DNA of 64,000 bases from Candidatus Omnitrophota bacterium (GTDB taxonomy: Bacteria; Omnitrophota; Gorgyraeia; B26-G9), in the NCBI GenBank assembly GCA_043814605.1, contig JBDRJV010000007.1, forward strand, positions 67,354-131,353, read 5' to 3'. How positions within the stretch are numbered: position 1 is the stretch's first letter; every line of letters starts with the position of its first letter. This document shows, piece after piece, positions 3,379-27,883 of the stretch. Made by a program: the position numbers and the translations under genes. The notes below the pieces were generated by a model. The model saw nothing but the letters and a program-made list of their open reading frames with translations, was not told the DNA's origin and ran no database searches.

Positions 3379-5838
3379 ATGTCTGGTGAATTAAAAAAAT
3401 GGCAGACTCCGGATAAAGGGTCTAGTGAAGAAAAAGGCATCATTAAAATATTAAAAGCTTTTTCTTCTTGTTTAAGAAAAATACCGTTATATCCCGCAAC
3501 GCACCCGATGGTTAAAGATTCAATTTTAGAATTATTTTTAAGTTTGGATGCGTTTTTAAAAAATTACGGAGATTTTAAATTAGAAGTACTCGGCGGTGAT
3601 ATTTTGATTTGTGAGGAGCGGTTGAATGACTTGCAATCTACAGCCCGGGATTTAATTTCTGATTTAAAAAAAATATACGTGGAGGGAATCACAGTATCCG
3701 GGGGGCTGACAGATGTAGAATTGGAAAATTTTTTAAAAATTCTGGCTTTAAAACCAGAAATTATGAAAGAAAAAGGCGGCATGAATTTTTTGATTAATGC
3801 GGCACAAATTAAAAATATTAATTTAATTGAAGTGCACTATGCCCGGATTAAAGAAGGGGAAGAAGTTACGGAAAAAGGCCAAGACAGCGGGGTGGGTTCA
3901 GGATCAGAGGAAGGAACAGGAGCAGGTGCTGTGGAGAAAGGTAAGGAAAAAGATATTGTCGGCATGGTCAGTGAATTCTTAAGTGGCAGCTCAGAAGAAG
4001 TTCCGGATAAAGAAGCAATTAAGTATGAATTTAAAAAGCATTCCCGCACTATTGTAAAGCAATTACTAAAATTAGTGGGGCCGGAAAAAGCAGTGGAGGA
4101 GGTTTTAAACATCATTGAAGAACGTTTTGATAAAGCGGGTTTTAGTGAAGAGGAGAAAAAGATTTATGTTCAAAAAGTAAAAGAACATACTTTGACAATA
4201 AAGGCACCTAAAGTTTCTAAAAAAGATATGGAAAAACAATTAGCCGAGCTAATGCAGGAAAATAAAAAGCTTAAATCTCAAATGAAGAGCTCCGGAGCAG
4301 GTGTTAGTGTACAAAACCCGGGGGCGGAGGTGATGGCCGAGAGTACCGATTCGATGAAAAAGAAGGTTCCTGAAAAAGATATTGTGGGTATGGTCAGTGA
4401 TTTTTTTTCGGGTGATTTAGATAAAATGCCGGATAAAGAAACAATTCAGTATGAGTTTAGAAAAAACGCCCCAAAAGTTGTAAAGCAGTTATTAAAATTA
4501 ATCGGGCCGGAAAAGGCAGTGGATGAGGTTTTGCATATTATTGAGGAGAGATTTGATAAAGCGGGGTTTAGTATAGAAGAAAAAGAGGCATATGTATCTC
4601 AGATTAAAGAACACACAATTAGAATCAATGCTCCCATGGTGCTGCAGGCGGAATTAGAAGGAAAGATAACTGTTTTAGAACAGGAAAACAGGGAGTTAAA
4701 AAATAATTTAAAAGATTTAGAATCAACCACCCGTCACGCAGCCGAAACGACCCAGGTTTTAGAGCAGGAAAATAAAAAAATTAAAAAAGAAAAACAAAGG
4801 ATAAATTCTGTATTAAGACATGTTGCCGAAGGGTTGGTGATTGTGGACAATGAAGGAAAAGTTCTTGTTTTAAACCCCGCAGCAGAAGATTTACTGGAAG
4901 TGGACAAAGAGGATAAAATTGGTAAACATATTTTAGAAGGATTAAAAGATAGCCAAATGGTTAGCATGTCTCGCGATAAACAGCAAGAAATAGAAATTGA
5001 ATTAGCCGGCCCCGATGATAAGACCAAGAAAACTTTAAGGGCCTCTAATGCGGTGATTGAAAATGAAGAAGGTGAAACAGTAGGAATTGTTTCTGTTCTG
5101 AGTGATATTACCAAAGAAAAAGAATTAGACCGCATGAAAAGCACATTTGTTTCGAATGTAACACATGATTTAAGAGCGCCTTTAATTTCAATTCAAAAGA
5201 GCTTATCCATAATTTTAGAAGAAGCGAAAAATAATATCCCCGCAGAGCAAAGGCAGTTTCTTGAAATTGCCAGCAATAATGCAGCCAGATTAACCACTAT
5301 GGTTAATGATTTATTAGATATCAGTAAACTTGAGTCCGGACACATGAAGCCAAGTTATACGCATGGAAAAATTGATGATGTGATCCAGGGAGTTTTTAAT
5401 ATGCTCGGAGCTTGGGCTGGAGGCAGAAATATTGAGCTTAAAAAAGAAGGGGTTGATTCTCTGGAAATAGATGCTGATATGAAAATGCTGGAGCAAGCTT
5501 TGTCAAATTTAGTGGGGAATGCGATTAAATTTACTCCGGATAAAGGCTGTGTCAGTGTTTGTGTGGAGGATCAAGGGCAAACACTAAAAATTAGTGTTAA
5601 GGATACAGGTTGCGGTATTCCGGAAGATAGTTTAACGCGAATTTTTGATAAATTTGAACAAGCGAAAACTGTGCCTGCCGCCGGCGGGACAAAAGGTACC
5701 GGCTTGGGGCTGGCGATTGTAAAAGATATTATTGAATTACACAGCGGACATATTTGGGTTGAAAGCGAAATTGGCCGGGGTAGTTGCTTCATTTTTACAA
5801 TGCCTAAAGAAAAAGAGGTTCTGGATATCCGTGATTAA
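3379..5838 (+). CDS. cytoplasmic sensor histidine kinase (unknown N-terminal domain, internal duplicated module, coiled coil, PAS, HisKA, HATPase_c)
   Basis: No TM segments; PAS-like segment (RHVAEGLVIVDNEGKVLVLNPAAEDLL); H-box HDLRAPL; G2 box GTGLGLAIVK; an ~85-aa segment is repeated twice. Confidence 0.85.
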   Translation: MSGELKKWQTPDKGSSEEKGIIKILKAFSSCLRKIPLYPATHPMVKDSILELFLSLDAFLKNYGDFKLEVLGGDILICEERLNDLQSTARDLISDLKKIYVEGITVSGGLTDVELENFLKILALKPEIMKEKGGMNFLINAAQIKNINLIEVHYARIKEGEEVTEKGQDSGVGSGSEEGTGAGAVEKGKEKDIVGMVSEFLSGSSEEVPDKEAIKYEFKKHSRTIVKQLLKLVGPEKAVEEVLNIIEERFDKAGFSEEEKKIYVQKVKEHTLTIKAPKVSKKDMEKQLAELMQENKKLKSQMKSSGAGVSVQNPGAEVMAESTDSMKKKVPEKDIVGMVSDFFSGDLDKMPDKETIQYEFRKNAPKVVKQLLKLIGPEKAVDEVLHIIEERFDKAGFSIEEKEAYVSQIKEHTIRINAPMVLQAELEGKITVLEQENRELKNNLKDLESTTRHAAETTQVLEQENKKIKKEKQRINSVLRHVAEGLVIVDNEGKVLVLNPAAEDLLEVDKEDKIGKHILEGLKDSQMVSMSRDKQQEIEIELAGPDDKTKKTLRASNAVIENEEGETVGIVSVLSDITKEKELDRMKSTFVSNVTHDLRAPLISIQKSLSIILEEAKNNIPAEQRQFLEIASNNAARLTTMVNDLLDISKLESGHMKPSYTHGKIDDVIQGVFNMLGAWAGGRNIELKKEGVDSLEIDADMKMLEQALSNLVGNAIKFTPDKGCVSVCVEDQGQTLKISVKDTGCGIPEDSLTRIFDKFEQAKTVPAAGGTKGTGLGLAIVKDIIELHSGHIWVESEIGRGSCFIFTMPKEKEVLDIRD
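3940..4630 (+). repeat. intragenic tandem duplication (~250-nt module twice) inside the histidine kinase gene
   Basis: Two copies of an ~85-aa module (KDIVGMVSEF/DF...PDKE.I.YEF.K....VKQLLKL.GPEKAV.EVL.IIEERFDKAGFS.EEK..YV...KEHT) at ~3946-4210 and ~4375-4635; the copies are also recognisably similar at DNA level. Confidence 0.7.
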
Positions 5839-7630
5839 GGATCAAAATTTTAATACACCGGTTGAGCTTGATGAAATATTATTAAATGTCAGAAAACCTG
5901 CACGTTATATAGGGCAAGAATATAATGCGGTTTATAAAAAACTGAGTTACAAAAATATTAATTTTGCCCTATGCTTTCCGGATAGTTATGAAATTGGTAT
6001 GAGCCATCTGGGTTTAAAAATTCTTTATAATATTTTGAATAAGCAAGAAGATGTTTATGCGCAGCGTTGTTTTTCGCCCTGGCCGGATATGCAGTTGCAA
6101 ATGCAAAAGCAGAACATTAAATTGTTTAGTTTAGAAACACAAACCCCTTTAAATTATTTTGATATAATCGGTTTTTCCCTGCAATATGAACTCGGGTTTA
6201 CCAATGTTTTAGGAATGCTGGATTTAGCGGGTATGGCTTTACACAGCGAGCAAAGAAAAACAGGCCCCTTGGTAATTGCCGGCGGGCCTTGCTGTTTAAA
6301 TCCGGAACCGATGTATAAGTTTATTGATGCTTTTTTTATCGGAGAATCGGAAGAATTGATATTGGAGTTCTTGAATGTATATCGGCAATTCAAAAAAAAA
6401 TTTCTAAATTTTGATAAAAATAATCAGGATGAATTAACCGCACTTAAAATTGAACTTCTGGAACGCATTGCCAGAATCGAAGGTATTTATGTCCCGCGTT
6501 TTTATACGCAGGATTTTAATCATTCATTGGATTTGATCCCGCAAAAATCTTATCTGCCGAAAAAAATTAAAAGAAGGTTTGTCTCGGATCTAAATAATGC
6601 TGAGTATTTTGAAGCGCCTTGCGTCCCTTATGTTGACATTGTGCATGATCGAATCAGTTTAGAAATTATGCGGGGTTGTCCTAACCGTTGTTATTTTTGC
6701 CAGGCAGGATTTACGATTAATCCCCTGCGTATGCGTAGTGTGGAGAACTTAATATCTATGGCCCGTAAAATATATGCAAATACAGGTTATGATAATATAT
6801 CTTTTTGTTCTCTTTCCAGTGCGAATTATCCTCAGCTTAAAAAATTAATTTTAAAAGTGCATGATTTTTTTAAAGAAAAAGGACTGGGGATTTCTTTGCC
6901 TTCATTACGTGTAGATAAAGAATTTTTGAGTGTAATTTCTTTGATTTCTGATCTTAAAAAAACCGGTCTAACGTTTGCCCCTGAGGCAGGCAGTGGGCGT
7001 TTGCGTAAATTGATTAATAAAAATTTAGATATGGAAAAACTTAGCGAAACAATTTTAACTGCCTATCAAACGGGTTGGCGCAGGTTAAAATTATATTTTA
7101 TGATCGGCTTGCCGACTGAGACAGAAACTGATCTTTTAGGAATTGTCCAGATGATTAATGAATATTCAGAATTAAAAAAACAAGTAGATGGCCGGCCGGC
7201 TCGCGTAAGCGTAGGGATTTCTAATTTTATTCCTAAAGCCCATACCCCATTTCAATGGCTGGGGATGGAAAGAAGAGATCAATTAGGAGTTAAACAAAAA
7301 TTTTTACGCGATCGTTTACTAAAAAGAATATTAGATGTGGATTTCCATGATATAGATATGAGTTTTATTGAGGCATGTTTAGCACGGGGCGATAGGAGCA
7401 TGGCTGCGGTAATTGAAAAAGCTTATTTTCTGGGAGCCAGATTTGATGCCTGGACAAATTTTTTTAATTATAATATATGGCAGGAGGCGTTTGAGAAAAC
7501 CGGGTTAAAGGCAGAGCATTATGTGAATGAAGGCTATGCGCTGGATTGTGTTTTACCTTGGGATCATATTGATTGTTTGATTAAAAAAAATGAACTTAAA
7601 CAATATTACACTAATATTAGCACAGTTTAA
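5831..7630 (+). CDS. B12-binding-domain radical SAM protein (TIGR03960-like; function unknown)
   Basis: CxxxCxxC radical SAM motif (CPNRCYFCQAG); N-terminal B12-binding-like region. The ORF track starts at 5732 and overlaps the kinase, so an in-frame GTG at 5831 overlapping the kinase stop is the more plausible start (start uncertain). Confidence 0.75.
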   Translation: MIKDQNFNTPVELDEILLNVRKPARYIGQEYNAVYKKLSYKNINFALCFPDSYEIGMSHLGLKILYNILNKQEDVYAQRCFSPWPDMQLQMQKQNIKLFSLETQTPLNYFDIIGFSLQYELGFTNVLGMLDLAGMALHSEQRKTGPLVIAGGPCCLNPEPMYKFIDAFFIGESEELILEFLNVYRQFKKKFLNFDKNNQDELTALKIELLERIARIEGIYVPRFYTQDFNHSLDLIPQKSYLPKKIKRRFVSDLNNAEYFEAPCVPYVDIVHDRISLEIMRGCPNRCYFCQAGFTINPLRMRSVENLISMARKIYANTGYDNISFCSLSSANYPQLKKLILKVHDFFKEKGLGISLPSLRVDKEFLSVISLISDLKKTGLTFAPEAGSGRLRKLINKNLDMEKLSETILTAYQTGWRRLKLYFMIGLPTETETDLLGIVQMINEYSELKKQVDGRPARVSVGISNFIPKAHTPFQWLGMERRDQLGVKQKFLRDRLLKRILDVDFHDIDMSFIEACLARGDRSMAAVIEKAYFLGARFDAWTNFFNYNIWQEAFEKTGLKAEHYVNEGYALDCVLPWDHIDCLIKKNELKQYYTNISTV

Positions 7631-7665: not shown

Positions 7666-7694
7666 TTGACTTAATTTTAGTTATATGATATAGT
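7666..7694 (+). promoter_or_regulatory. sigma70-like promoter candidate upstream of pilT1 (TTGACT-17 nt-TATAGT)
   Basis: TTGACT at 7666-7671, 17-nt spacer, TATAGT at 7689-7694, ~35 nt upstream of the pilT1 ATG. Confidence 0.4.
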
Positions 7695-7728: not shown

Positions 7729-8802
7729 ATGCCGCTAAAATTGAATAATTTATTGAAAATCATGCTCGATAGAGGGGCTTCTGATTTACATATCCATGCT
7801 TATGCTATTCCGCAAATCCGAATAAACTCACAGCTTGTTGCGCTGGATTATCCAGAGTTTACTCCGGAGCAAAGCAAAGATATTGTTTATCCGTACTTAG
7901 CAGAAGATGAAATTAAAGATTTTGAAAAGGATAAAGAACTAGATACTTCCTTTAGCGATGCCGAACTTTCGGCACGCTTTAGAATGAATGTTTTTTATCA
8001 TAAAGGTGGGGTTTGTGCGGCAATCCGGGCAATCCCAAAAAAAATTCCTGATTTTAGTGAATTAGGGTTGCCGGAGCAGCAAATGGTTCAGATTTGCCGC
8101 AGTAAAAGAGGACTGGTCTTAATGACCGGAGCCACAGGCTCAGGTAAGTCCACAACTTTAGCGTCAATAATCAACCGCATAAATGCAGAGCGTAATTGCC
8201 ATATAATTACGGTTGAAGATCCTGTGGAATTTATTTATACTAATAATAAAAGTATTATTACGCAGCGGGAAATTGGCAAAGATACAAATTCTTTTTCCGG
8301 GGCTTTAAAATATATTCTCCGGCAGGACCCGGATGTGATTTTAATTGGAGAGATGAGAGATTTAGAAACAGTGCAAGCGGCAATGAATATGGCGGAAACC
8401 GGGCATTTAGTTTTTGCCACGCTGCATACATCTGATTGTGTTCAAACGATCAACAGAATTATTGATATGTTTCCCTATCAATCACAATCTCAAGCCCGGA
8501 CACAATTATCCTATGTTTTATTATCAACTATTTCGCAGCAGCTTTTAGCTAAATCGGATAATTCCGGTTTATGTTTAGCCAGTGAATTAATGATTGCGAC
8601 TTTCGGGGTACGGGCAATGATTCGGGAAGAAAAGGTACATCAGATATTTTCTCTGATTCAAACCGGATTGAAAGAAGGGATGTATACAATGAATCATTCG
8701 CTTTATGAATTATACAAAAAGGGGTTAATTACTTATCAGGAGGCATCCGCCCACATAACTGATACTCAGGATTTCAAGAGATTTTTTCAAGGTCCAAGAT
8801 AA
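7729..8802 (+). CDS. pilT: type IV pilus retraction ATPase PilT (paralog 1)
   Basis: 357 aa; Walker A GATGSGKSTT; PilT/PilU-family layout without the GspE N-domain or Zn tetracysteine motif. Confidence 0.85.
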   Translation: MPLKLNNLLKIMLDRGASDLHIHAYAIPQIRINSQLVALDYPEFTPEQSKDIVYPYLAEDEIKDFEKDKELDTSFSDAELSARFRMNVFYHKGGVCAAIRAIPKKIPDFSELGLPEQQMVQICRSKRGLVLMTGATGSGKSTTLASIINRINAERNCHIITVEDPVEFIYTNNKSIITQREIGKDTNSFSGALKYILRQDPDVILIGEMRDLETVQAAMNMAETGHLVFATLHTSDCVQTINRIIDMFPYQSQSQARTQLSYVLLSTISQQLLAKSDNSGLCLASELMIATFGVRAMIREEKVHQIFSLIQTGLKEGMYTMNHSLYELYKKGLITYQEASAHITDTQDFKRFFQGPR

Positions 8803-8823: not shown

Positions 8824-9231
8824 ATGGAAGAAAAAATTAAAGTATTACTCGTTGATGACGAAGTAGATTTTATTAATATGATGCAGTATTGGCTTAAAAG
8901 TAAGGGGTTTGAAGCAGACTGTCTTTATCAAGGAGATAGCGTAATTGAACAATTAAAGGCAAAAAGCTACAGTATTATGTTTCTGGATTTAAACCTTCCG
9001 GGTTTAAGCGGTATTGAAATATTAACGCGATTAAGGGAGTTTGATAAAACTTTTCCCGTAATAATTTTTAGTGCATTTGGGACAAAAGAAAACTTAAAAC
9101 AAGCTACAAGTTTAGGGATTTCCGGGTTTTTTGCTAAAGAAAGAGGGTTTGAAGAAGCCGCCAGATTAATTCAAACAGCATTAAGAACCCATAAAGGGTT
9201 AACCCATCCAAAAGAAAAAGGGGATAAATAA
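8824..9231 (+). CDS. single-domain CheY-like response regulator (PilH/PilG-like) between the two pilT genes
   Basis: 135 aa; receiver motifs LLVDDE and FLDLNLPG (phospho-acceptor Asp) plus a conserved Lys region; no output domain. Confidence 0.8.
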   Translation: MEEKIKVLLVDDEVDFINMMQYWLKSKGFEADCLYQGDSVIEQLKAKSYSIMFLDLNLPGLSGIEILTRLREFDKTFPVIIFSAFGTKENLKQATSLGISGFFAKERGFEEAARLIQTALRTHKGLTHPKEKGDK

Positions 9232-9232
9232 A

Positions 9233-10297
9233 ATGGCTTTAGAAATGTCAAAATTATTAAAGAATTTAACGGAACGCAGTGGTTCAGATTTACATCTAGG
9301 CGTAAATACTCCGCCGCATTTTCGTATACATGAGAAAATGATTCCGCTGGATTCAAAGGCTTTATCCGCGGCAGAAGTGCGTGATTTAGTTTACAGTATT
9401 TTAAACCCCAGGGATATCGAAAAGTTTGAAAAAGAAAAGGAACTGGACCGATCTTTTGAAATTGAAGGGATGAGCCGGTTTCGTTTAAACGTTTTTTTTC
9501 AAAGAGGATATATCGGATGTGCAATTAGGGTGATCCCGTTTAAAATTCTTACGTTTTCAGAATGCGGTTTGCCGGAGAAAACAATAATTAATTTAGTCAG
9601 AAAGCCCAAAGGTTTAGTTTTGGTAACCGGCGCTACCGGTTCTGGTAAGTCAACAACTTTAGCTTCAATTATTGATCAGATCAATGAAGAAAGGGATTGT
9701 CATATTGTTACTGTGGAAGATCCGATTGAGTTTGTACACAAAAATAAGCAAGCGGTTATTGATCAAAGGGAAGTTGGGCAGGATACGCTCAGTTTTGCTA
9801 ATGCACTAAAGCATGTTTTGCGCCAGGATCCAGACGTCATCTTAGTTGGGGAAATGCGGGATTTAGAAACAATTGAGGCCGCTTTGACCATTGCCGAAAC
9901 CGGTCATCTTGTCTTTGCTACGCTGCATACTTCAGATTCCGTGCAAACAGTAAATAGAATTATTGATGTTTTTCCTTCGCATCAGCAGCAGCAAGTTAGA
10001 ACTCAGCTGTCTTTTGTGCTGCAGGGGATTATTTCTCAGCAATTAATTCCTAAAGTCGGCGGAACCGGCCGGGTATTAGCTTCAGAAATTATGGTTTCAA
10101 CCGCAGCGGTAAAAAGTATGGTGCGAGAGCAGAAAGTGCATCAGATATATTCTCTGATTCAATCCGGGCAAAAAGACGGAATGAGAACAATGAATCAATC
10201 AATATATGAATTATATGCAGAAAAACTAATCACTTATGAAAGTGCAATTGCGCGGTCAACAGATCCGGAAGATTTAATGCGCTTGTTAAAAAGATAA
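9233..10297 (+). CDS. pilT: type IV pilus retraction ATPase PilT/PilU-family (paralog 2)
   Basis: 354 aa; Walker A GATGSGKSTT; ~60% identity by eye to the upstream pilT. Confidence 0.85.
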   Translation: MALEMSKLLKNLTERSGSDLHLGVNTPPHFRIHEKMIPLDSKALSAAEVRDLVYSILNPRDIEKFEKEKELDRSFEIEGMSRFRLNVFFQRGYIGCAIRVIPFKILTFSECGLPEKTIINLVRKPKGLVLVTGATGSGKSTTLASIIDQINEERDCHIVTVEDPIEFVHKNKQAVIDQREVGQDTLSFANALKHVLRQDPDVILVGEMRDLETIEAALTIAETGHLVFATLHTSDSVQTVNRIIDVFPSHQQQQVRTQLSFVLQGIISQQLIPKVGGTGRVLASEIMVSTAAVKSMVREQKVHQIYSLIQSGQKDGMRTMNQSIYELYAEKLITYESAIARSTDPEDLMRLLKR

Positions 10298-10318: not shown

Positions 10319-10927
10319 ATGAAAAAGTCAAAAACAAAACAAATCGGAGAAATTCTCATTGAAATCGGGCTAATCAGCCAGGAACAATTAGATAAGGCCT
10401 TAGAAGTTCAGTTAAAAGAGGGTGGTCTGCTGGGGCAAATTTTAATTAAACTGGGTTTTGTGACCCAGGAAGAAATGGAAAAAAGTCTTTTTGAACAGAC
10501 AAGCAATGCGCAAAAACTAGAAAATGCTTTAATTGAAGCGAGTATGATTAGTCCGGAGCAATTACAAAAAGCAAAAAAAGTGTTAGCGGAAGAAGGGGGT
10601 TTTTTAATTGAGAAGATTATTCGCCTGGGGTTTTTAGAAGAAGAAGATTTTGTCAGCACTATGGTTACTCAATACGGATTTCCTTATTTACAATTAACAA
10701 ATTATGAGATTGAAGCGGAATTTGTAAAATTAGTGCCCAAGGAAATTGCCAAGAAATATTGCCTGATCCCGATTGATAAAATAGGGAATATCCTTACACT
10801 GGCCATGATTGATCCTCTTAATGCTGCCGCACAGGATGAAATAAGAAAAATTACCGGATTAAATGTAGAAGTTTTTATTTCAACCCTTTCTGATATTAAT
10901 AATGCGATTAATAAATACTACGCTTAA
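10319..10927 (+). CDS. standalone GspE-N-terminal-domain protein with two tandem MshEN-like 24-aa motifs (putative c-di-GMP receptor)
   Basis: Two motifs matching the MshEN pattern: QIGEILIEIGLISQEQLDKALEVQ and LLGQILIKLGFVTQEEMEKSLFEQ. These are followed by a T2SSE_N-like domain (LVPKEIAKKYCLIPIDKIGNILTLAMIDPLNAAAQDEI...). There is no ATPase domain. Confidence 0.6.
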   Translation: MKKSKTKQIGEILIEIGLISQEQLDKALEVQLKEGGLLGQILIKLGFVTQEEMEKSLFEQTSNAQKLENALIEASMISPEQLQKAKKVLAEEGGFLIEKIIRLGFLEEEDFVSTMVTQYGFPYLQLTNYEIEAEFVKLVPKEIAKKYCLIPIDKIGNILTLAMIDPLNAAAQDEIRKITGLNVEVFISTLSDINNAINKYYA

Positions 10928-10951: not shown

Positions 10952-12667
10952 ATGATGCAAAGTGTTAAAGACAAAATGCTGGAGGTGTTAACGCGTTCTA
11001 ATTTTTTAACCAAAGAGCAATTGGACGAAGCGATCCTGACACAAAAAAAAACCGGTACGCGTTTGAGTGAAGTTTTAATAACCCTCGGCTATATTTCACA
11101 GCGGGATTTAGTGATTGTATTAAGCCAGAGTTTAAATATCCCCCCGATAAATTTAGCCAAAATGAAGATTAATCCGGAAGTTGTTAAAATTATTCCCCGT
11201 GAGCTTGCCGAAAAATACCAGGCAATAGTAGTTTCTAAAATTGGCAAAATATTAACCATTGCCATGGTTGATCCTTTAAATGTTTTGGCGATTGATGAAT
11301 TAAAAGTATTAACAAACTTTACGCTTAAAATTGTTATTGCTTCAGAAGAGCAGTTAAAAGAAGCGATCAGCAATTATTATAGTGTTACGACGAATGCTCA
11401 GATCCGCGGCATTATTGATGACGTAAAAGATATGGATATTGAAATCATTGAAGACAAACTGGAAAAAGAATTTTCGATCAGTTCGCAGGAATTGTTAAGA
11501 GCGGTAGAAGATGCTCCGGTTGTAAAAATTACAAATTTAATTCTCTCGGAAGCAATAAAACTCAAGGCGAGTGATATTTTAATCGAACCGCAGGAAAAAA
11601 GATTACGGATCCGCTATCGTTTAGATGGTATTTTAAAAGAATTTCCTTCCCCTCCCAAATCAATGCAAGAGGCGATTGTTTCCCGGATTAAGGTTATGTC
11701 TATATTGAACATTGCCGAACATCGCCTGCCGCAGGATGGCCGTTTTAAAATTAAACTGCAAAACCGCGAGGTTGATTTTCGTGTTTCAGTTATGCCGACC
11801 AGCCATGGGGAGAAAGTTGCCTTACGTATTTTAGATAAAACCGTGGTTGTTTTAGATATCGATGCTATGGGATTTGAAGAAGCACCGCTTAAAAAAATAA
11901 AAGAGATTTCTTTAGAACCGCACGGAATGATTCTGATGTGCGGGCCTACCGGCAGTGGTAAGTCAACCACCCTTTACAGTATTCTTAAACATATTGATGA
12001 CCCGGAAAAAAATTTATGCAGTGCGGAAGATCCGGTGGAATATCAATTAAAAGGGATAAACCAGGTAAATGTAAATACAGATGTGGGTTTAACGTTTGCC
12101 GGGTCGCTAAGGTCTTTTTTGCGTCAGGATCCGGATATAATTATGGTCGGGGAAATTCGCGATGTGGAGACTTTAGATATTTCGATTAAAGCAGCCTTAA
12201 CCGGTCATTTAGTTTTGAGTACATTACATACGACTGAGGCAGCGGGTGCCATAACCCGAATGGTAAATATGGGGATAGAACCTTTTTTAATTACATCCTC
12301 ATGCCTTCTGGTATGTGCACAGCGTTTAATTCGAAGAATTTGTCCGGATTGTAAAGAACCCTATCCCATTACCGAAGAGCTGCGGAAAGATTTTAAAATT
12401 CCGGCGAATTACAAAGAACTGTATCGAGGCAAAGGCTGTGCTAAGTGCGAAAAAACGGGATATCGGGGCAGGATTGGTTTATGTGAAGCTTTAGTGTTAA
12501 CCCCGGCAATTCGTGATTTAATTATGGAGCGGGTGCAGGAAAATGTGCTTAAAGCCAAAGCCCGGGAAGAGGGCATGAGCACTTTACGCGAAAACGGAGT
12601 GAAAAAAGCAATAAGAGGCATTACCACAATTGAAGAAGTAACCAGGCTAACTGTGGACGATGATTAA
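10952..12667 (+). CDS. pilB: type IV pilus assembly ATPase PilB/GspE family (paralog 1)
   Basis: 571 aa; N-terminal MshEN-like motif (RLSEVLITLGYISQRDLVIVLSQS) and GspE-N domain; Walker A GPTGSGKSTT; tetracysteine Zn motif CPDCK...CAKCEKTGYRGR. Confidence 0.88.
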   Translation: MMQSVKDKMLEVLTRSNFLTKEQLDEAILTQKKTGTRLSEVLITLGYISQRDLVIVLSQSLNIPPINLAKMKINPEVVKIIPRELAEKYQAIVVSKIGKILTIAMVDPLNVLAIDELKVLTNFTLKIVIASEEQLKEAISNYYSVTTNAQIRGIIDDVKDMDIEIIEDKLEKEFSISSQELLRAVEDAPVVKITNLILSEAIKLKASDILIEPQEKRLRIRYRLDGILKEFPSPPKSMQEAIVSRIKVMSILNIAEHRLPQDGRFKIKLQNREVDFRVSVMPTSHGEKVALRILDKTVVVLDIDAMGFEEAPLKKIKEISLEPHGMILMCGPTGSGKSTTLYSILKHIDDPEKNLCSAEDPVEYQLKGINQVNVNTDVGLTFAGSLRSFLRQDPDIIMVGEIRDVETLDISIKAALTGHLVLSTLHTTEAAGAITRMVNMGIEPFLITSSCLLVCAQRLIRRICPDCKEPYPITEELRKDFKIPANYKELYRGKGCAKCEKTGYRGRIGLCEALVLTPAIRDLIMERVQENVLKAKAREEGMSTLRENGVKKAIRGITTIEEVTRLTVDDD

Positions 12668-12688: not shown

Positions 12689-14410
12689 ATGCGCAGAGCA
12701 AAAAAAAGACTGAATGAACTTTTATTAGATTATAATTTAATTGAAGAAAAGGAAGTTGTCCGGGCTTTAGAATTACAGCGTAAGCGGGGTGTGCCTTTAG
12801 CCACAATTTTAGTCGAGGAAAAATTTGTTAAAGAAGAAGATGTGGTTAGTTGTTTTTGCCGGCATTTAAATATTCCTCCGATTACTTTAGCAAAATTTTA
12901 TGGAGCCGAAAAAATTATTAAATTGATTCCCGAACACATTGCCCGGCATTACCGTTTACTTTGTGTTTCTCAGATGGGGAGAATGTTGACTGTGGCGATG
13001 TGTGATCCTTTAAATGTATTAGCAATTGATGATATCAAAGCTTTAACCGGATACGAGGTAACTCCGGTTGTTGCTGGCTTAGCGGATATGAAATTAGCTT
13101 TAGACAGATTTTATCTGGGAAAAGTTGAAGAAATTAAGCCGGAGCAGTCGTTTGATGAATTAGTAAAAGGTTTAGACAGTGAAGATATTGAGATAGTGAG
13201 TAATCAGTCTCAGATTGATATTGGCGAGGTTATTCGTTCCAGCAGTGAAGCACCGATAGTTAAAATTATTGATGCTTTAATTGCGGAATCTTTAATAAAA
13301 AGGGCTTCGGATATTCACATTGAGCCTTATGAAGATGAAATTCGGGTAAGATACCGCATTGACGGCGCGTTAATGCAAGCGGCAGTATTACCGAAAAAAA
13401 TTCAAAACGCTGTTGCCGCCAGACTTAAGATTATGTCTAATTTAGATATTACCCAAAGATTAGTGCCTCAGGACGGCAGGTTTAAAGTAAGGCTGGAGGA
13501 AAAAGAGGTTGATTTTCGTGTTTCAGTTTTGCCGATAAGTTTTGGGGAAAAGGTTGTTATGCGGGCTTTAGATAAATCGAATTTAAGTATTGGGCTGGAA
13601 GCTTTAGGTTTTCTGCCTCAGGCAATGGAGGCATTTCAATATGCGGTAACCCGGCCTTACGGAATGATTTTAGTGACCGGACCCACAGGTTCGGGTAAGT
13701 CAACAACACTTTACTCTGTTTTAAATAAATTAAACAACCCGGAGCGAAATATTATTACGATTGAAGACCCGGTTGAGTATCAGGTTGAGGGGATTACTCA
13801 GGTTCAGGTTAAACCGGACATCGGGCTTACTTTTGCCACAGGGTTACGTTCAATTTTACGGCAAAATCCGGATATTTTAATGGTAGGAGAAATCCGTGAT
13901 TTTGAAACCGCAGATATTGCGGTTAAGGCAGCTTTAACCGGGGCTTTGCTTTTAAGTACATTGCATACCAATGATGCACCGGGAGCAATAACCCGTCTTA
14001 TTGATATGGGGATTGAACCGTTTCTAATTTCCAGCAGTGTAATTGCGGTTGCTGCGCAGAGATTAGCGCGTAAGGTTTGTGCAGCTTGTAAAGAACCGCT
14101 TGAAATACCGCAAGCAGTATTAGACCGTTTAGGCATAAAACTGGATGCAAAAAAAATAAAAGCGTTTAAAGGCAAAGGTTGTGATAAATGTAGTGGCAGC
14201 GGGTACCGGGGCAGGTTTGCGATTTTAGAAGTTATGATTGTAACCGATGCAGTCCGGGAAATGATTATGAAGCGATGCTCGAGTGATGAAATTAAAAGAT
14301 ATGCCCGGAAAGAATTAGGCATGCTTACATTACGGGATACAGGGATTGAAAATTTTATCAGGGGCCAGACGACACTGGAAGAAGTATTAAGAGTAACATC
14401 GAGTGAATGA
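12689..14410 (+). CDS. pilB: type IV pilus assembly ATPase PilB/GspE family (paralog 2)
   Basis: 573 aa; Walker A GPTGSGKSTT; tetracysteine CAACK...CDKCSGSGYRGR; N-terminal GspE-N domain with a degenerate MshEN motif. Confidence 0.88.
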   Translation: MRRAKKRLNELLLDYNLIEEKEVVRALELQRKRGVPLATILVEEKFVKEEDVVSCFCRHLNIPPITLAKFYGAEKIIKLIPEHIARHYRLLCVSQMGRMLTVAMCDPLNVLAIDDIKALTGYEVTPVVAGLADMKLALDRFYLGKVEEIKPEQSFDELVKGLDSEDIEIVSNQSQIDIGEVIRSSSEAPIVKIIDALIAESLIKRASDIHIEPYEDEIRVRYRIDGALMQAAVLPKKIQNAVAARLKIMSNLDITQRLVPQDGRFKVRLEEKEVDFRVSVLPISFGEKVVMRALDKSNLSIGLEALGFLPQAMEAFQYAVTRPYGMILVTGPTGSGKSTTLYSVLNKLNNPERNIITIEDPVEYQVEGITQVQVKPDIGLTFATGLRSILRQNPDILMVGEIRDFETADIAVKAALTGALLLSTLHTNDAPGAITRLIDMGIEPFLISSSVIAVAAQRLARKVCAACKEPLEIPQAVLDRLGIKLDAKKIKAFKGKGCDKCSGSGYRGRFAILEVMIVTDAVREMIMKRCSSDEIKRYARKELGMLTLRDTGIENFIRGQTTLEEVLRVTSSE

Positions 14411-14498: not shown

Positions 14499-15704
14499 AT
14501 GCCGCTATTCAAATATGAAGCAAAGGATGAGCAGGGTAATTCGGTAAATGATACAATTGAAGCAAAAGATCAACTGGTTGCTTTGGATATGCTGCGGGTT
14601 AAAAACCTGGTAATTATTTCGATCAGCGAAATTCAAAAGGCAAAGGGAGCAGCTAAAGTCAGCTCAAAAAAAATTAAACCAGATGAACTGGTTATTTTTT
14701 CCCGGCAATTAGCAACGATGGTTAATGCGGGTATTCCGCTGGTGCAAAGTTTGGATATTTTAAGTGAGCAGATGGAAAGTCCTTCTTTTCAGCATGTAGT
14801 TGCTACAGTACGCAGTGATGTGGAAGCAGGTTCTAGTTTATCCGCAGCTTTAGAAAAACACCCCAAGGTTTTTACGATGTTGTACACAAATATGGTAAGG
14901 GCTGGGGAAACAAGCGGTATGTTAGATGAGATTTTAGACCGTTTAGCTGGTTATTTAGAAAAAACCGGCCAGCTGCAAAGAAAAGTTAAATCAGCGATGG
15001 TTTATCCGGCAGTTGTATCATTAATGGCAGTCGCGATTACTCTCGTATTATTATTAAAAGTTATTCCGACTTTTAAAGAAATCTTTTCAACTCTAGGAGG
15101 TACTTTGCCATTGCCCACACAGATTTTAATCGGTATATCCGATACTTTAAGAGCGTATTTTGTTTATGCAGTAGCTCTATTAATTGCTTTTGGTTTTGCG
15201 ATGATTAAACTTGTACAGACTCCCAAAGGTAAAGAAAGATTTGATCAATTGAAGCTGAATTTGCCTGTATTTGGTATTTTATTAAGGAAAGTGGCTGTAG
15301 CCCGGTTTTCGCGGACTCTTTCTACGCTTATTCGGAGCGGCGTGCCGATTTTAGGTGCATTAGAGATTGTAGGAAAAACAGCGGGTAATGTTGTTATTGA
15401 AGCTGCGGTTGAGAGTGCCAGAGTAGGAATCAGGGAAGGTGAAAGCATTTCTGCTCCTTTAGCCAAGAGCAAGGCATTTCCTCCCATGGTAACAAGGATG
15501 ATTTCAGTAGGTGAAGAATCTGGAGAACTGGAAAAAATGCTTTCTAAAATTGCAGATTTTTATGAAGACCAGGTGGATGCTGCAGTGAGCGGGTTAACCA
15601 GCTTAATTGAACCATTAATCATTGCGTTTTTAGGTATAGTTGTGGGTTCGATTGTTATTGCTATGTTTCTGCCTATATTTAAGATTACAGAACTTATTGG
15701 GTAG
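14499..15704 (+). CDS. pilC: type IV pilus inner-membrane platform protein PilC (GspF family)
   Basis: 401 aa; duplicated T2SSF domains with three TM segments; follows pilB. Confidence 0.88.
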   Translation: MPLFKYEAKDEQGNSVNDTIEAKDQLVALDMLRVKNLVIISISEIQKAKGAAKVSSKKIKPDELVIFSRQLATMVNAGIPLVQSLDILSEQMESPSFQHVVATVRSDVEAGSSLSAALEKHPKVFTMLYTNMVRAGETSGMLDEILDRLAGYLEKTGQLQRKVKSAMVYPAVVSLMAVAITLVLLLKVIPTFKEIFSTLGGTLPLPTQILIGISDTLRAYFVYAVALLIAFGFAMIKLVQTPKGKERFDQLKLNLPVFGILLRKVAVARFSRTLSTLIRSGVPILGALEIVGKTAGNVVIEAAVESARVGIREGESISAPLAKSKAFPPMVTRMISVGEESGELEKMLSKIADFYEDQVDAAVSGLTSLIEPLIIAFLGIVVGSIVIAMFLPIFKITELIG

Positions 15705-19962: not shown

Positions 19963-20003
19963 TAAGTTAATAAGTTTAATTATAACTAGTGGGGAGGGGA
20001 GAA

Positions 20004-20447
20004 ATGGATAATAAAGTCAGGATCACTTTAATTACTGCAGTTGTGATTTTAGTGATTATCATTACCCTGGGGCTTAGGGATGTGTTTAAAACCGCAACTG
20101 TGGCAACAGAAAAAAACCAATCTGAGTTAACATCAGATGACCGAAGAATTAGTTATCAGGAGAGGGAAAATGCACCAAAAATAAAAGCAAAAGCAACGCT
20201 CAGTTCAGACGAGTTGTATTTTCCTAAAAAAGATAAACCGGATAAAGTCGATCCAGAGGCAATAAGTAAGGTTAAGCATGCGGCGGAAAATTCTTTAGAT
20301 CCTGAGCAGGTTAATACACCTGTTGCAATCAGGGCAGATTCAGATGAGCTGCGCTTGCCGGAAGGGGTGGACACGCTGGATGCGGATATTTATTTGGATG
20401 CAGAAGGTAATCTGATTATCTCAAATAATCCGCAGAAAAAAATTTAA
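20004..20447 (+). CDS. hypothetical N-terminally membrane-anchored protein (pilus-locus associated)
   Basis: Strong RBS GGGGAGGGGAG before the ATG at 20004 (the tracked ORF begins at an upstream GTG, 19989); single TM then a charged extracytoplasmic region. Confidence 0.5.
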   Translation: MDNKVRITLITAVVILVIIITLGLRDVFKTATVATEKNQSELTSDDRRISYQERENAPKIKAKATLSSDELYFPKKDKPDKVDPEAISKVKHAAENSLDPEQVNTPVAIRADSDELRLPEGVDTLDADIYLDAEGNLIISNNPQKKI

Positions 20448-24908: not shown

Positions 24909-26186
24909 ATGGAAAAGTTAATTATTATTTTACCGACTGTAGGAATTTTGTTTTTAATAATCCTAGGAATGCTGGCACCGCTCATGGCCCCGCCGGCATT
25001 TCTGGCCACTCTGCCTTTTATTGCCTTAGCAATTTATTTATACAAGAAAAAAAACAGCCTGAAAAAAGAATTAGAGGAAATGCGGCTTTCTTACCGGCAG
25101 AAAAAAATAGAAATTGAAAAAGAAATCATAAAAAAAGACAAAAGGCAGTCTGAACAGTTTAACGAATTAAAAAAATTCGGCCGGGATCTTTCCGGAGCTT
25201 TAAATAAAGGGGAATTATTGCGTTTGATTGCCAATACGTTTCAAAAACTAACTGTTTCTAAATCCGGAGAGAGTCAGTGTTTTTTATTAAGCAATGATTT
25301 AGGCTCAGATGAATTTATCTATGAAGTGGGAGATAATTTTGATAGTAATATCCTAAAATCATTACGTTTTAAAACCACGGATGAGATCATTCAAAGCGTA
25401 GTGACATCTAAAAAAGTGCATACCTTTATCAGTGATATCTTTAGCGGAGATTCAAATATAACTTATTTTTTTAAATCAGAACATTTGGCAACACTGGCGC
25501 AGCTGGATTCTATGGCATTAATCCCCCTAATTTTAGAGGATGAGGTGTGGGGAATTATTGTAATTTTTTGCCATGAGGATGCAGCGGAAAACATAAAAAA
25601 AGAAGAAGAATTTTTTGAGCTATTGATGGCCCAGGCATCGATTGCTTTAGGCAGTGCAATTCACCGCGGTTTAGCCAGTGTGGATAGATTAACGCAATTG
25701 TATAACCGGACTTTTCTGCAAAAACGCATGAATGAGGAAATTGAATTTTGTAACCGGCAATTTTTACCAATGAGCCTGATGATGTTAGATATTGACCATT
25801 TTAAAGAAATCAATGACCTTTACGGGCATCAAGAGGGGGATATGGTTTTAAAAAAAATTGCCCATATTATCAGTAAAAATGTCCGGTTAACCGATTTAGT
25901 CGCGCGTTATGGGGGCGAGGAATTTGTGGTTGTTTTGCCGGGGATTGCGGAAACAACATTTGGAAAATTTTCCATTGCGAAAAGATTATGTGAATCTATT
26001 GCCAAGGAAGACTTTATTATCAGTGAGGAAAAAAAGATAAAAGTAACCGTAAGTATTGGGGTTGCGCTGCGCCGCTATCCTGATGATAAAGCACAGGGCA
26101 TGCAGGAATTAATCAAAAAAGCCGATACCCTGCTCTATAAGGCCAAAAATTCCGGCCGTAATCAAGTTTGTTATAGTGCAGATTAA
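24909..26186 (+). CDS. membrane-anchored diguanylate cyclase (GGDEF domain, GGEEF active site) with a GAF-like sensor region
   Basis: Two N-terminal TM helices; RYGGEEF active site; I-site-like RxxD upstream; DxLT..NR motif typical of GGDEF domains. Confidence 0.82.
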   Translation: MEKLIIILPTVGILFLIILGMLAPLMAPPAFLATLPFIALAIYLYKKKNSLKKELEEMRLSYRQKKIEIEKEIIKKDKRQSEQFNELKKFGRDLSGALNKGELLRLIANTFQKLTVSKSGESQCFLLSNDLGSDEFIYEVGDNFDSNILKSLRFKTTDEIIQSVVTSKKVHTFISDIFSGDSNITYFFKSEHLATLAQLDSMALIPLILEDEVWGIIVIFCHEDAAENIKKEEEFFELLMAQASIALGSAIHRGLASVDRLTQLYNRTFLQKRMNEEIEFCNRQFLPMSLMMLDIDHFKEINDLYGHQEGDMVLKKIAHIISKNVRLTDLVARYGGEEFVVVLPGIAETTFGKFSIAKRLCESIAKEDFIISEEKKIKVTVSIGVALRRYPDDKAQGMQELIKKADTLLYKAKNSGRNQVCYSAD

Positions 26187-26197
26187 ACAGGAGGAAA

Positions 26198-27883
26198 ATG
26201 TTTAGTTTATATAAAGAATCAATCGGGCTGGAAATCGGCGACGGATTAGTTAAAGCCATGCTGATTAAATCTAATGCCCGAGAAAATAAATTAATTGGCT
26301 TTTCCCTGCAGGAGGTTAATTTCCGGGACGGGCGCCAGGGAATAATTAATGCCGTGCAGCATGTGCTTAATGAATTAGGCGTAAATAAAAAAAAGCATAA
26401 GGTGAATATTTCTGTTTCCGGAGAATCCGTAATGGTGCGGGATATTCATTGGCCGCAAATGACCGATGAAGAAATACGTAAAGCTTTAAAATTTGAAGTG
26501 GAAAGGCAGGTGCATTATAAAGCCGAAGAAATTGTTTTTGATTATTATTCAATATTAGATAGAAGCATTGCAGAGACAAAAACCCGGGTGGTTCTGGTTG
26601 CTGCTAAGAAAAACTTGATTGAAAATTACCAGAGCTTGATCGAAGCCAGCGGCTACCAATGCGGGTTTATCGAAGTGGATACTTTTAGCCTTTTAAACTG
26701 TTTTTATTTAAACGGCCCTAAAATTGCACCGGAAAAAACAATTGCGGTAATCAGCGTAGGCATGGAAGTTACCAATATTGATATTGTCAAGGGAAGAATT
26801 GTGGGCTTAACAAAGGATGTTTTTGTGGCTTGGAGTAACTTACTGGATGCCTTACCTAAAAATACAGAGCTGGATTTTTCCCAGATTCAGGGATTAAGAG
26901 GATTAGCCGGCAGTGATGATGTTTATGAGCTGGCGTTATTTATTACAAACGCTTTGAGCAGCCAAATCCGGCGGACCATTGAATTTTATGAAAGCCAGGG
27001 CCGGGATACAGTGGATGAAATTTACCTTTCCGGCCGCATGGCCATGTGTAAAAATTTAGATAAATATTTACAGGATATTTTGGGTTTAAAAGTTATCGAG
27101 TGGAATCCTTTAGCAAATTTGCAGATCAATACAAAAACTGTGCAGAAACAAAAAGTATTGGAAAATGCGAAAATGCTGGCAATCAGTACAGGGCTGGGCT
27201 GCCACCGGTCATTTGATATTGATTTATCCACGAAAAAAATAGAGAAAAAGTCAAAGGCTGGCAGTAAAATTTTCTCAGAAAATAAAGCGATAATCGCCGC
27301 AGTTATAATTACAATTTTCTTTTTGCTAGGGCTTTGGGTAGTTTTGATTAGCCAAATTAAGGTTAAAGAGGCAAATAAAGAAAAACTTTCCAATCAAAAA
27401 AAAGAACTAGAAACGGTATTAAAAAGTATTGAAGATTTAAAAAAAGGCCGGGAACTTCTCGGACGGCATATGCTTGTTGCCCGGACCTTATTTTCCCGCA
27501 AATTACTTTGGGCTGAAAAACTTTATCAAATCAGTAAAAATTTACCGGCGGATATTTGGCTGACAGATATCTATATTTCAAAAACATCAAATAAAAAAAA
27601 TATTTCCAAATCTTCGTTTGATGAGATCAATTTTCTTTTTAAAAATGAAGAGCCGCCGAAAATTATTTTAAATCAGGATTCAGAGTCATTGTTTATTAAA
27701 GGCATTGCCTATTCAGATTTTAGCGATAAGATGCTCTTAAGCATTAATGTTTTGATTAGTAACCTTAAAGCAGAAAAAGGGTTTGTCGCCTGTTTTGATA
27801 AAATAGAATTAAACCGTCTTTACCGGCAAAATTTAGGGGAAACGCCGATTATAAAGTTTGAAATTGAGTGCCAGCTTAAATAG
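26198..27883 (+). CDS. fused PilM-PilN type IV pilus assembly protein
   Basis: N-terminal ~350 aa actin-like PilM; internal TM helix (AIIAAVIITIFFLLGLWVVLI) followed by a PilN-like periplasmic domain; precedes pilO/pilP/pilQ. Confidence 0.7.
   Translation: MFSLYKESIGLEIGDGLVKAMLIKSNARENKLIGFSLQEVNFRDGRQGIINAVQHVLNELGVNKKKHKVNISVSGESVMVRDIHWPQMTDEEIRKALKFEVERQVHYKAEEIVFDYYSILDRSIAETKTRVVLVAAKKNLIENYQSLIEASGYQCGFIEVDTFSLLNCFYLNGPKIAPEKTIAVISVGMEVTNIDIVKGRIVGLTKDVFVAWSNLLDALPKNTELDFSQIQGLRGLAGSDDVYELALFITNALSSQIRRTIEFYESQGRDTVDEIYLSGRMAMCKNLDKYLQDILGLKVIEWNPLANLQINTKTVQKQKVLENAKMLAISTGLGCHRSFDIDLSTKKIEKKSKAGSKIFSENKAIIAAVIITIFFLLGLWVVLISQIKVKEANKEKLSNQKKELETVLKSIEDLKKGRELLGRHMLVARTLFSRKLLWAEKLYQISKNLPADIWLTDIYISKTSNKKNISKSSFDEINFLFKNEEPPKIILNQDSESLFIKGIAYSDFSDKMLLSINVLISNLKAEKGFVACFDKIELNRLYRQNLGETPIIKFEIECQLK

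Follow-up and report, generated by a model that had tools for sequence, protein, structure and literature searches.

What does a protein assembled from MshEN modules do when it carries no ATPase domain and is encoded between the motor genes of a type IV pilus cluster? MshEN and PilZ are among the few widespread receptor domains for cyclic di-GMP (c-di-GMP), with ComFB recently proposed as a third. The locus that raises this question lies in a 64,000-nucleotide (nt) stretch of contig JBDRJV010000007.1 from a Candidatus Omnitrophota bacterium (GenBank assembly GCA_043814605.1); this whole stretch is called the window here, and all positions refer to it. The open reading frame (ORF) at 10319-10927 encodes a product of 202 amino acids (aa), which a preliminary description made from the sequence alone had put forward as a candidate detached c-di-GMP receptor or adaptor that could regulate either pilus motor or compete with PilB for the platform. 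We consider it very probable that this is a genuine, conserved and PilB-linked gene for an ATPase-less MshEN protein, and we refer to it and its relatives as solo genes and solo proteins. The gene and its parts are as follows.

10319..10927, + strand: gene for the ATPase-less MshEN protein, (MshEN_N)2-ND1 (ORF, Pfam and NCBIfam matches, AlphaFold2 model)
10340..10498, + strand: module 1, aa 8-60, predicted c-di-GMP site with motif I QIGEILIEIGLISQEQLDKALEVQ, spacer LKEGG and motif II LLGQILIKLGFVTQEEMEKSLFEQ (translation, NF053729)
10514..10672, + strand: module 2, aa 66-118, degenerate four-helix module with KLENALIEASMISPEQLQKAKKVL, spacer AEEGG and FLIEKIIRLGFLEEEDFVSTMVTQ (translation)
10673..10924, + strand: ND1, an alpha/beta subdomain of the MshEN_C or GspE-N1-like type, aa 119-202 (PF05157, AlphaFold2, Foldseek)

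A free-standing MshEN protein

The ORF runs from an ATG start to a TAA stop. Its product matches ABIG64_01885, annotated at NCBI as hypothetical in a Candidatus Omnitrophota metagenome-assembled genome (MAG), with 100% identity. It begins 21 nt after the end of pilT2 (9233-10297) and ends 24 nt before the start of pilB1 (10952-12667), so the ORF coordinates bear out the position first described for it. Because the ORF and pilB1 share a reading frame at this short distance, and because some homologues are named 'type IV pilus assembly protein PilB' by the Joint Genome Institute (JGI), the ORF could be mistaken for the frameshifted or misassembled 5' end of pilB1, or for the dead leftover of a duplication. 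Two in-frame TAA codons, at 10925 and 10949, nevertheless separate it from pilB1, and PilB1 has a complete N-terminus of its own, covering positions 2-564 of the 564 in the PilB equivalog profile TIGR02538. The short gene also recurs in more than 40 other genomes, and its 113 homologues come from independent assemblies, have conserved lengths, share 55-73% identity within the clade, and lie at variable distances from pilB that are not multiples of three. These observations exclude a frameshift or fusion with pilB1, uphold the free-standing gene of the preliminary description and effectively refute an artefact or remnant. Against the N-termini of PilB1 and PilB2 the solo unit reaches only 34% and 29% identity, versus 41% against a Wallbacteria PilB, which excludes a recent duplication of the adjacent PilB N-terminus; judged by these identities, the solo gene is an old paralogue rather than a recent copy.

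Profile searches assigned the product to the MshEN family. Pfam PF05157 (currently named MshEN, earlier T2SSE_N) matched aa 119-202 (E 1.2e-20, 73.7 bits, cut-off 23.1), and the Pfam scan gave no match to the T2SSE ATPase domain PF00437, in agreement with the proposed GspE-N1 domain lacking an ATPase. NF053729, an NCBIfam profile for a 53-aa MshE-related c-di-GMP motif domain, matched in two stretches (E 1.5e-21, 75.9 bits, cut-off 38), the better of which spans the full profile at aa 8-60; a module hidden Markov model (HMM) built for this analysis placed the second at aa 66-118. TIGR02538 scored 85.6 bits against a cut-off of 675.65, aligning aa 67-201 to profile positions 2-136 only. The 202-aa protein is an MshEN family member, not a PilB ATPase. 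It consists of module 1 (53 aa), module 2 (53 aa) and the ND1/MshEN_C subdomain, in that order, and each module has the 24+5+24 layout (aa 8-31/32-36/37-60 and aa 66-89/90-94/95-118). The two tandem 24-aa motifs noticed earlier are thus the pair of module 1; the total is four, with the second, degenerate pair lying inside what had been taken for the T2SSE_N domain. Pfam matches to FumaraseC_C, DUF4388 and DUF2949 on the helical module (aa 6-55) were each below their own cut-off and were taken as noise.

Structure prediction yielded an MshEN-type fold, so that both of the computational checks suggested at the outset have now been made, with curated profile cut-offs far exceeded and a chance resemblance excluded by a wide margin. 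The AlphaFold2 model, built from 32 homologues, has a mean predicted local distance difference test (pLDDT) of 85.4 and a predicted template modelling score (pTM) of 0.64, and comprises two four-helix units (helices at aa 9-62 and 67-117) followed by an alpha/beta subdomain (aa 121-200) whose strands and helices reach pLDDT values of about 90 or higher. In a Foldseek search of the PDB, the first match was the MshE-c-di-GMP complex 5HTL (E 4e-9), followed by GSPII-A and GSPII-B of PilF, the Xanthomonas PilB N-domain and the XpsE N-domain; the template modelling (TM) score for 9G1W was 0.76, normalised to the target. The ND1 subdomain matched 5HTL, 9G1W, 7LKO, 2D28 and the EpsE N1 domain 2BH1, as well as GspE. 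A profile search of the PDB aligned aa 7-62 to the c-di-GMP-binding GSPII-B of PilF and aa 66-203 to the N-domains of MshE, PilB and PilF (MshE profile E 2e-21). Among the 32 homologues, the ND1 residues G120, P122, L124, L126, G156, L159, T160 and P166 are invariant.

Motif residues in the solo protein and in its PilB neighbours

The c-di-GMP site of Vibrio cholerae MshE (VcMshE) is formed by the motif RLGxx(L/V/I)(L/V/I)xxG(L/V/I)(L/V/I)xxxxLxxxLxxQ, present twice with 5 residues between (Wang et al. 2016, PMC5013675). The contacts are chiefly hydrophobic; the Gly and the residue after it add contacts through their backbone amides, and the terminal Gln contributes as well. By isothermal titration calorimetry, binding was undetectable in G11L and 72-fold weaker in G40I, with losses of 10-38-fold for Leu-to-Ala and 9-12-fold for Gln-to-Ala changes; MshEN_N 1-62 of VcMshE alone bound c-di-GMP at 0.35 uM (PMC5013675). 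The Arg appears dispensable, since GSPII-B of PilF carries Lys167 and Leu196 at the Arg positions and binds with a dissociation constant (KD) of 6 nM, and its K167L mutant crystallised with c-di-GMP bound (Neissner et al., PMC11731258). The L196R mutant binds 4-fold more weakly, and the consensus has been widened to (R/K/L)LG (PMC11731258).

Module 1 retains both Gly, both Gln, every hydrophobic position and the 5-aa spacer of this site, with Gln8 (motif I) and Leu37 (motif II) in place of the Arg. Positions 2, 17, 21 and 24 are I9, L24, L28 and Q31 in motif I and L38, M53, L57 and Q60 in motif II. The position-3 Gly residues, G10 and G39, are both invariant in the 32 homologues, as are A27, L28 and Q31, while K7, Q60 and the EGG of the spacer are nearly so. 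Variation at the turn position 10 made the full relaxed regular expression too strict, and we used per-position statistics instead: at positions 2, 17 and 21 (hydrophobic) and 24 (Gln), 90-100% of the solo family conform. Motif II fits the extended consensus, and motif I does likewise except at position 1.

In module 2, the Gly positions are occupied by Glu68, nearly invariant in the clade, and Ile97. Substitutions at the corresponding Gly of VcMshE (G11L and G40I) abolish or cut binding, and module 2 is therefore predicted to be non-binding. It further lacks the Arg, carries Lys at position 21, which is normally hydrophobic, and Leu in place of the first Gln, and is far more variable than module 1 across the 32 homologues. 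Of the Arg, Leu, Gly and Gln residues on whose conservation the preliminary description had staked its case, module 1 thus keeps the Gly, the Gln and the hydrophobic residues but neither Arg, and module 2 lacks the Gly, the Arg and one Gln, which counts partly against that description by its own standard. We lean slightly towards module 1 being a c-di-GMP binder.

The two ATPases encoded directly downstream carry MshEN_N modules of their own.

10952..12667, + strand: pilB1, full-length assembly ATPase with a degenerate MshEN_N (KML...RLS) (ORF, Pfam, NCBIfam)
12689..14410, + strand: pilB2, full-length assembly ATPase with a degenerate MshEN_N (RLN...PLA) (ORF, Pfam, NCBIfam)

PilB1 has Leu and Ser at the Gly positions, the Leu falling exactly where the binding-dead VcMshE substitution G11L sits. 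In PilB2 both motif Gly are likewise replaced, and the relaxed motif had zero matches within PilB1 and PilB2. For all solo proteins and PilBs in the related loci, we aligned the first module and counted Gly at motif position 3.

Solo modules: motif I 93%, motif II 83%
PilBs without a solo neighbour: motif I 89%, motif II 85%
PilBs with a solo neighbour: motif I 1%, motif II 3%

Counted by protein, both Gly were gone in 49 of the 52 PilBs with a solo neighbour and both were present in none of them (0/52), while 29 of the 32 PilBs without a solo neighbour had both.

Distribution of the family and the surrounding pilus cluster

The 202-aa protein has 113 further homologues at E <= 1e-3, and the family occurs almost exclusively in Omnitrophota. 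About 44 have the two-module form (202-206 aa, 55-73% identity), and about 60 have a one-module form of 144-153 aa in which a single module is joined straight to ND1. We annotated 79 related genome loci with our own ORF and BLAST pipeline; those with a solo gene were almost all Omnitrophota MAGs, with a few under other taxonomic labels. The solo gene stood immediately upstream of pilB in about 40 of the 79 (median gap 24 nt, with lengths that vary and are not multiples of three), most commonly in the order solo-pilB-pilB-pilC. The 200-aa clade retains the entire string radical SAM-pilT-receiver-pilT-solo-pilB-pilB-pilC. In the 150-aa clade the upstream neighbour is ftsW, radical SAM, pilT or another gene, and the downstream neighbour is nearly always pilB. 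Since the downstream gene is nearly always pilB in both clades and the upstream gene varies, the solo gene is linked to PilB and not to PilT: regulation of the PilB motor, as first suggested, gains support from synteny, and regulation of the PilT motor does not. Matches in other phyla (Wallbacteria, Clostridia, Elusimicrobia and others) were ordinary PilB N-termini from pilB-pilT-pilC operons lacking a solo gene.

Several further ATPase-less MshEN proteins came to light. In some Omnitrophota loci (Ca. Zapsychrus exili, nDJH6bin18), an additional solo MshEN gene sits between pilB2 and pilC, at 12178-12627 in L027 and at 11908-12330 in L033, again with both motif Gly present (LLG...YIG and LIG...LVG). 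Planctomycetota MAGs encode ATPase-less proteins of 242-261 aa with up to three MshEN_N modules (L044 7800-8585; L066 and L067 7893-8620), one of which, P0095, has RLG and RIG motif starts; no pilB was found within 8 kb of these genes, so solo MshEN proteins also occur outside pilus operons. An exhaustive profile search gave 37,783 MshEN relatives at E <= 1e-3, among them numerous short proteins lacking an ATPase, along with giants containing as many as seven repeats. The latter (P0115-P0121, P0144, P0157, P0167 and P0223) are 1,000-1,345 aa long and have 4-7 separate MshEN matches, exceeding the (MshEN)4-T2SSE maximum of the 2016 survey.

In the window, the solo gene belongs to a pilus supercluster that extends from about position 7.7 kb to 30.5 kb. 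Its genes run pilT, CheY-like receiver, pilT, the 202-aa ORF, pilB, pilB and pilC; then two minor pilins, a 912-aa ORF, a 152-aa ORF, a PilS-like kinase, a PilR-like sigma-54 activator and two pilins; and finally a GAF-GGDEF cyclase, pilM, pilO, a T2SSB-like ORF and a secretin. Besides the solo gene and the two pilB genes, the features that matter here are the following.

7729-8802, + strand: pilT1 (ORF, Pfam)
8824-9231, + strand: CheY-like receiver, single domain (ORF, Pfam)
9233-10297, + strand: pilT2 (ORF, Pfam)
14499..15704, + strand: pilC, platform protein, T2SSF (Pfam)
24909..26186, + strand: GAF-GGDEF diguanylate cyclase with an intact RYGGEEF site (GGDEF E 1.5e-47)
26198..27883, + strand: pilM, 561 aa, candidate docking partner of ND1-type domains (Pfam PilM_2)

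The genes from pilT1 through pilB2 are separated by gaps of 1-24 nt; a promoter-like site lies at 7666-7694, ahead of pilT1, and the + strand showed no intergenic site resembling a terminator. The cyclase gene lies between the pilin genes and pilM, 12 nt upstream of the latter. Among related metagenome loci, which were found through PilM, the same cyclase stood directly upstream of pilM in six of the seven with upstream sequence (L083-L086, L088 and L089). We found no PilZ or EAL protein in this operon, and no such Pfam match in the 202-aa protein.

Other genes of the cluster also drew attention. PilB1 and PilB2, in tandem 21 nt apart, both have a Walker A sequence (GPTGSGKST) and a Cys-x2-Cys...Cys-x2-Cys pattern; the pair is kept in most Omnitrophota loci examined, and the two proteins could possibly form a hetero-hexamer or serve as two alternative extension motors. 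The CheY-like receiver gene, flanked by pilT1 and pilT2 and separated from the latter by 1 nt, is kept in the 200-aa clade and recalls PilG/PilH-type control of motor choice. In PilM, the PilM_2 match covers only aa 47-334, and the C-terminal ~230 aa beyond it could be a fused PilN-like or other module. The 912-aa (17224-19962) and 152-aa (19989-20447) ORFs, situated between the two minor-pilin genes and the pilS/pilR-like pair, had no Pfam match and may encode a tip adhesin or a PilY1-like component. Directly upstream of the motor gene string, a radical SAM protein with Radical_SAM_N2 is encoded at 5732-7630, a linkage that recurs in many loci of both clades (L005-L013, L020, L022 and others); with the TTG start listed for it, the ORF overlaps that of the preceding histidine kinase by ~100 nt, and the true start is probably further downstream.

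A candidate c-di-GMP sensor subunit for PilB

From sequence, fold and gene context, we propose with about even confidence that the 202-aa protein senses c-di-GMP for PilB, the pilus-extension motor, as a subunit detached from it. Module 1 would bind one c-di-GMP through the backbone amides of Gly10/Glu11 and Gly39/Gln40, together with Gln31 and Gln60, its hydrophobic clusters being formed by Ile9, Leu24, Leu28, Leu38, Met53 and Leu57, and Gln8 and Leu37 would stack on the guanines where Arg otherwise would. Module 2, its pocket lost, would act as a structural spacer. Through ND1 or the helical modules, the protein may dock on the N-terminal ring of PilB1/PilB2, or on the PilM/PilC platform; ND1-type domains bind GspL/EpsL, which are PilM paralogues, as in EpsE-N1/EpsL, and PilB binds PilM (PMC8389850). 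It would thereby give c-di-GMP input in trans to both ATPases, whose own input would have gone with the motif Gly, and the ligand would come at least partly from the GAF-GGDEF cyclase encoded beside pilM. In evolutionary terms, a multi-MshEN PilB (cf. Thermus PilF and the clostridial (MshEN)2-T2SSE) may have been split into two genes. We put forward more tentatively a broader reading, an MshE-type motor split across Omnitrophota, in which a free high-affinity sensor, fed by the cluster cyclase and common to two PilBs lacking sites of their own, would, as a single exchangeable subunit, gate which extension motor engages the platform. If true, this would be a phylum-wide alternative to control by cis-MshEN and by FimX-PilZ.

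The closest known systems share some features with this protein and differ in others. Like V. cholerae MshE (5HTL, PMC5013675), the 202-aa protein combines a four-helix MshEN_N with an alpha/beta MshEN_C in the 24+5+24 layout, and module 1 has the same Leu-Gly, Leu...Leu and Gln positions; unlike MshE, it has no ATPase, its helical module is doubled, Gln and Leu replace the Arg, and the degenerate module occupies the canonical place next to ND1. Thermus thermophilus PilF (6F8L, 8PDK, 9G1W; PMC11731258) similarly has serial, specialised MshEN/GSPII units, with GSPII-A non-binding, GSPII-B of very high affinity and GSPII-C ordinary (PMC11731258). GSPII-B, to which module 1 aligns, shares the Leu at position 1 of motif II ('DLLGRIL' in PilF, 'GLLGQIL' in the 202-aa protein). 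In PilF, however, all units and the ATPase form one 889-aa chain, whereas here a separate gene encodes the extra units, and the MshEN unit fused to each PilB is degenerate. Read together, the solo protein and PilB1 resemble a multi-MshEN-ATPase architecture.

Pseudomonas aeruginosa PA3740 (MshEN - xT2SSE_N1, PMC5013675 Supplementary Table 4), listed among c-di-GMP binders and linked to swarming motility (PMC5013675), likewise joins MshEN_N to an N1-like domain without an ATPase. It is set apart by description from the 202-aa protein, having a single module and a highly diverged N1 and occurring in beta-/gammaproteobacteria. Two other proteins of the same table share the tandem module: Cyanothece cce_1044, (MshEN_N)2, which lacks ND1, and the clostridial Cthe_1107, (MshEN)2-T2SSE, which has the ATPase in the same polypeptide. 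[quoted passage not shown]

Module 1 residues, the cyclase in the cluster and the Gly loss in PilB thus favour the receptor or adaptor role of the preliminary description, and the absence of both Arg and the state of module 2 do not. A number of further observations weigh against a sensor role. Gln8, preceded by a near-invariant Lys7, belongs neither to the published relaxed set [RKPN] nor to the extended R/K/L, and in homologues position 1 of motif I is mostly Gln, otherwise P, H, L, E, M, K, N or R. The turn Gly at position 10 fits the relaxed set in just 46% and 60% of solo modules, and a minority of solo family members satisfy the full relaxed regular expression. In the model, the linker after module 1 (aa 59-63) has a pLDDT below 50, and module 1 is away from the canonical site beside ND1, where an Asp of the PilF C-subdomain contacts the ligand. 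PilB1 scores 47.5 with NF053729, above the cut-off of 38, so the HMM alone would not flag its degeneracy. What separates PilBs that have a solo neighbour from those that lack one is largely a difference between phyla, and the comparison carries phylogenetic and methodological bias, the outgroup (non-Omnitrophota) PilBs having been retrieved through canonical-motif-like patterns; within the phylum it rests on one Omnitrophota locus, L064, where a canonical KLG...RLG PilB has no solo gene upstream.

Several of these points would suit a ligand-independent adaptor or decoy, in which ND1 covers the N-terminal ring of PilB or fills the docking site on PilM/PilC; the protein would then work as a stoichiometric brake, chaperone assembly, or scaffold a hetero-hexamer of PilB1 and PilB2. 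ND1 is the best modelled and a very strongly conserved part of the protein (pLDDT about 90 or higher; eight invariant residues) and resembles the EpsL-binding EpsE N1 domain (Foldseek 2BH1, 4PHT), both Arg are missing and many family members do not match the full relaxed motif, and non-binding degenerate MshEN domains are common, XpsE and PilF GSPII-A among them. What a decoy leaves unexplained is the invariance of the ligand-contact Gly, Gln and hydrophobic residues in module 1, when these have decayed in module 2 and both PilBs, as well as the diguanylate cyclase kept in the cluster; we regard it as possible but rather doubtful.

We judge it unlikely that the protein regulates retraction, with PilT1/PilT2 as its target, or the selection of an extension or a retraction motor, instead of PilB. 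Its gene does directly follow pilT-receiver-pilT in the 200-aa clade, only 21 nt from pilT2 in the window, yet the 150-aa clade has ftsW, radical SAM or another gene in that place and nearly always pilB next, and by Pfam the PilT proteins have no N1 or MshEN domain to pair with. More unlikely still is a sensor of another nucleotide, 3'3'-cyclic GMP-AMP (cGAMP) or a different cyclic dinucleotide, with Gln and Leu for Arg retuning specificity. VcMshEN is reported to bind cGAMP weakly (PMC5013675), and the base-stacking position 1 does differ systematically, being Gln in most solo motif I and Leu in motif II. The guanine-specific contacts, though, are backbone amides at the conserved Gly, which are still present, PilF binds c-di-GMP with high affinity through a unit that has Leu at position 1, and the enzyme in the cluster is a GGDEF protein, not a CD-NTase.

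PMC5013675 (Supplementary Table 4) already catalogues the MshEN domain and its motif, as well as tandem (MshEN_N)2 proteins and the ATPase-less MshEN-N1 arrangement of PA3740. By contrast, three features appear to be undescribed: the (MshEN_N)2-ND1 architecture with an intact predicted site in the extra N-terminal module, the near-constant place ahead of a tandem pilB pair in Omnitrophota, and, reciprocally, the disappearance of the motif Gly from those PilBs. A standalone MshEN protein is absent from the PilB cofactors of a recent review, and we found in the literature no description of one as a PilB cofactor, nor of this arrangement in Omnitrophota.

For PilB-type motors, how a ligand at the flexible N-terminus becomes pilus extension is still unclear (review PMC11656802). 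A separate small sensor beside site-less ATPases, if true, would make sensing and motor activity separable biochemically and could reveal directly which partner a liganded MshEN module engages; it would be a natural sensor/motor split, not a new principle. Should c-di-GMP binding fail, the family would still be a conserved, unannotated accessory component of a two-PilB pilus machine. In Omnitrophota, type IV pili probably serve to attach the cells to hosts or prey, and the solo protein gives this largely uncultured phylum a concrete candidate c-di-GMP output.

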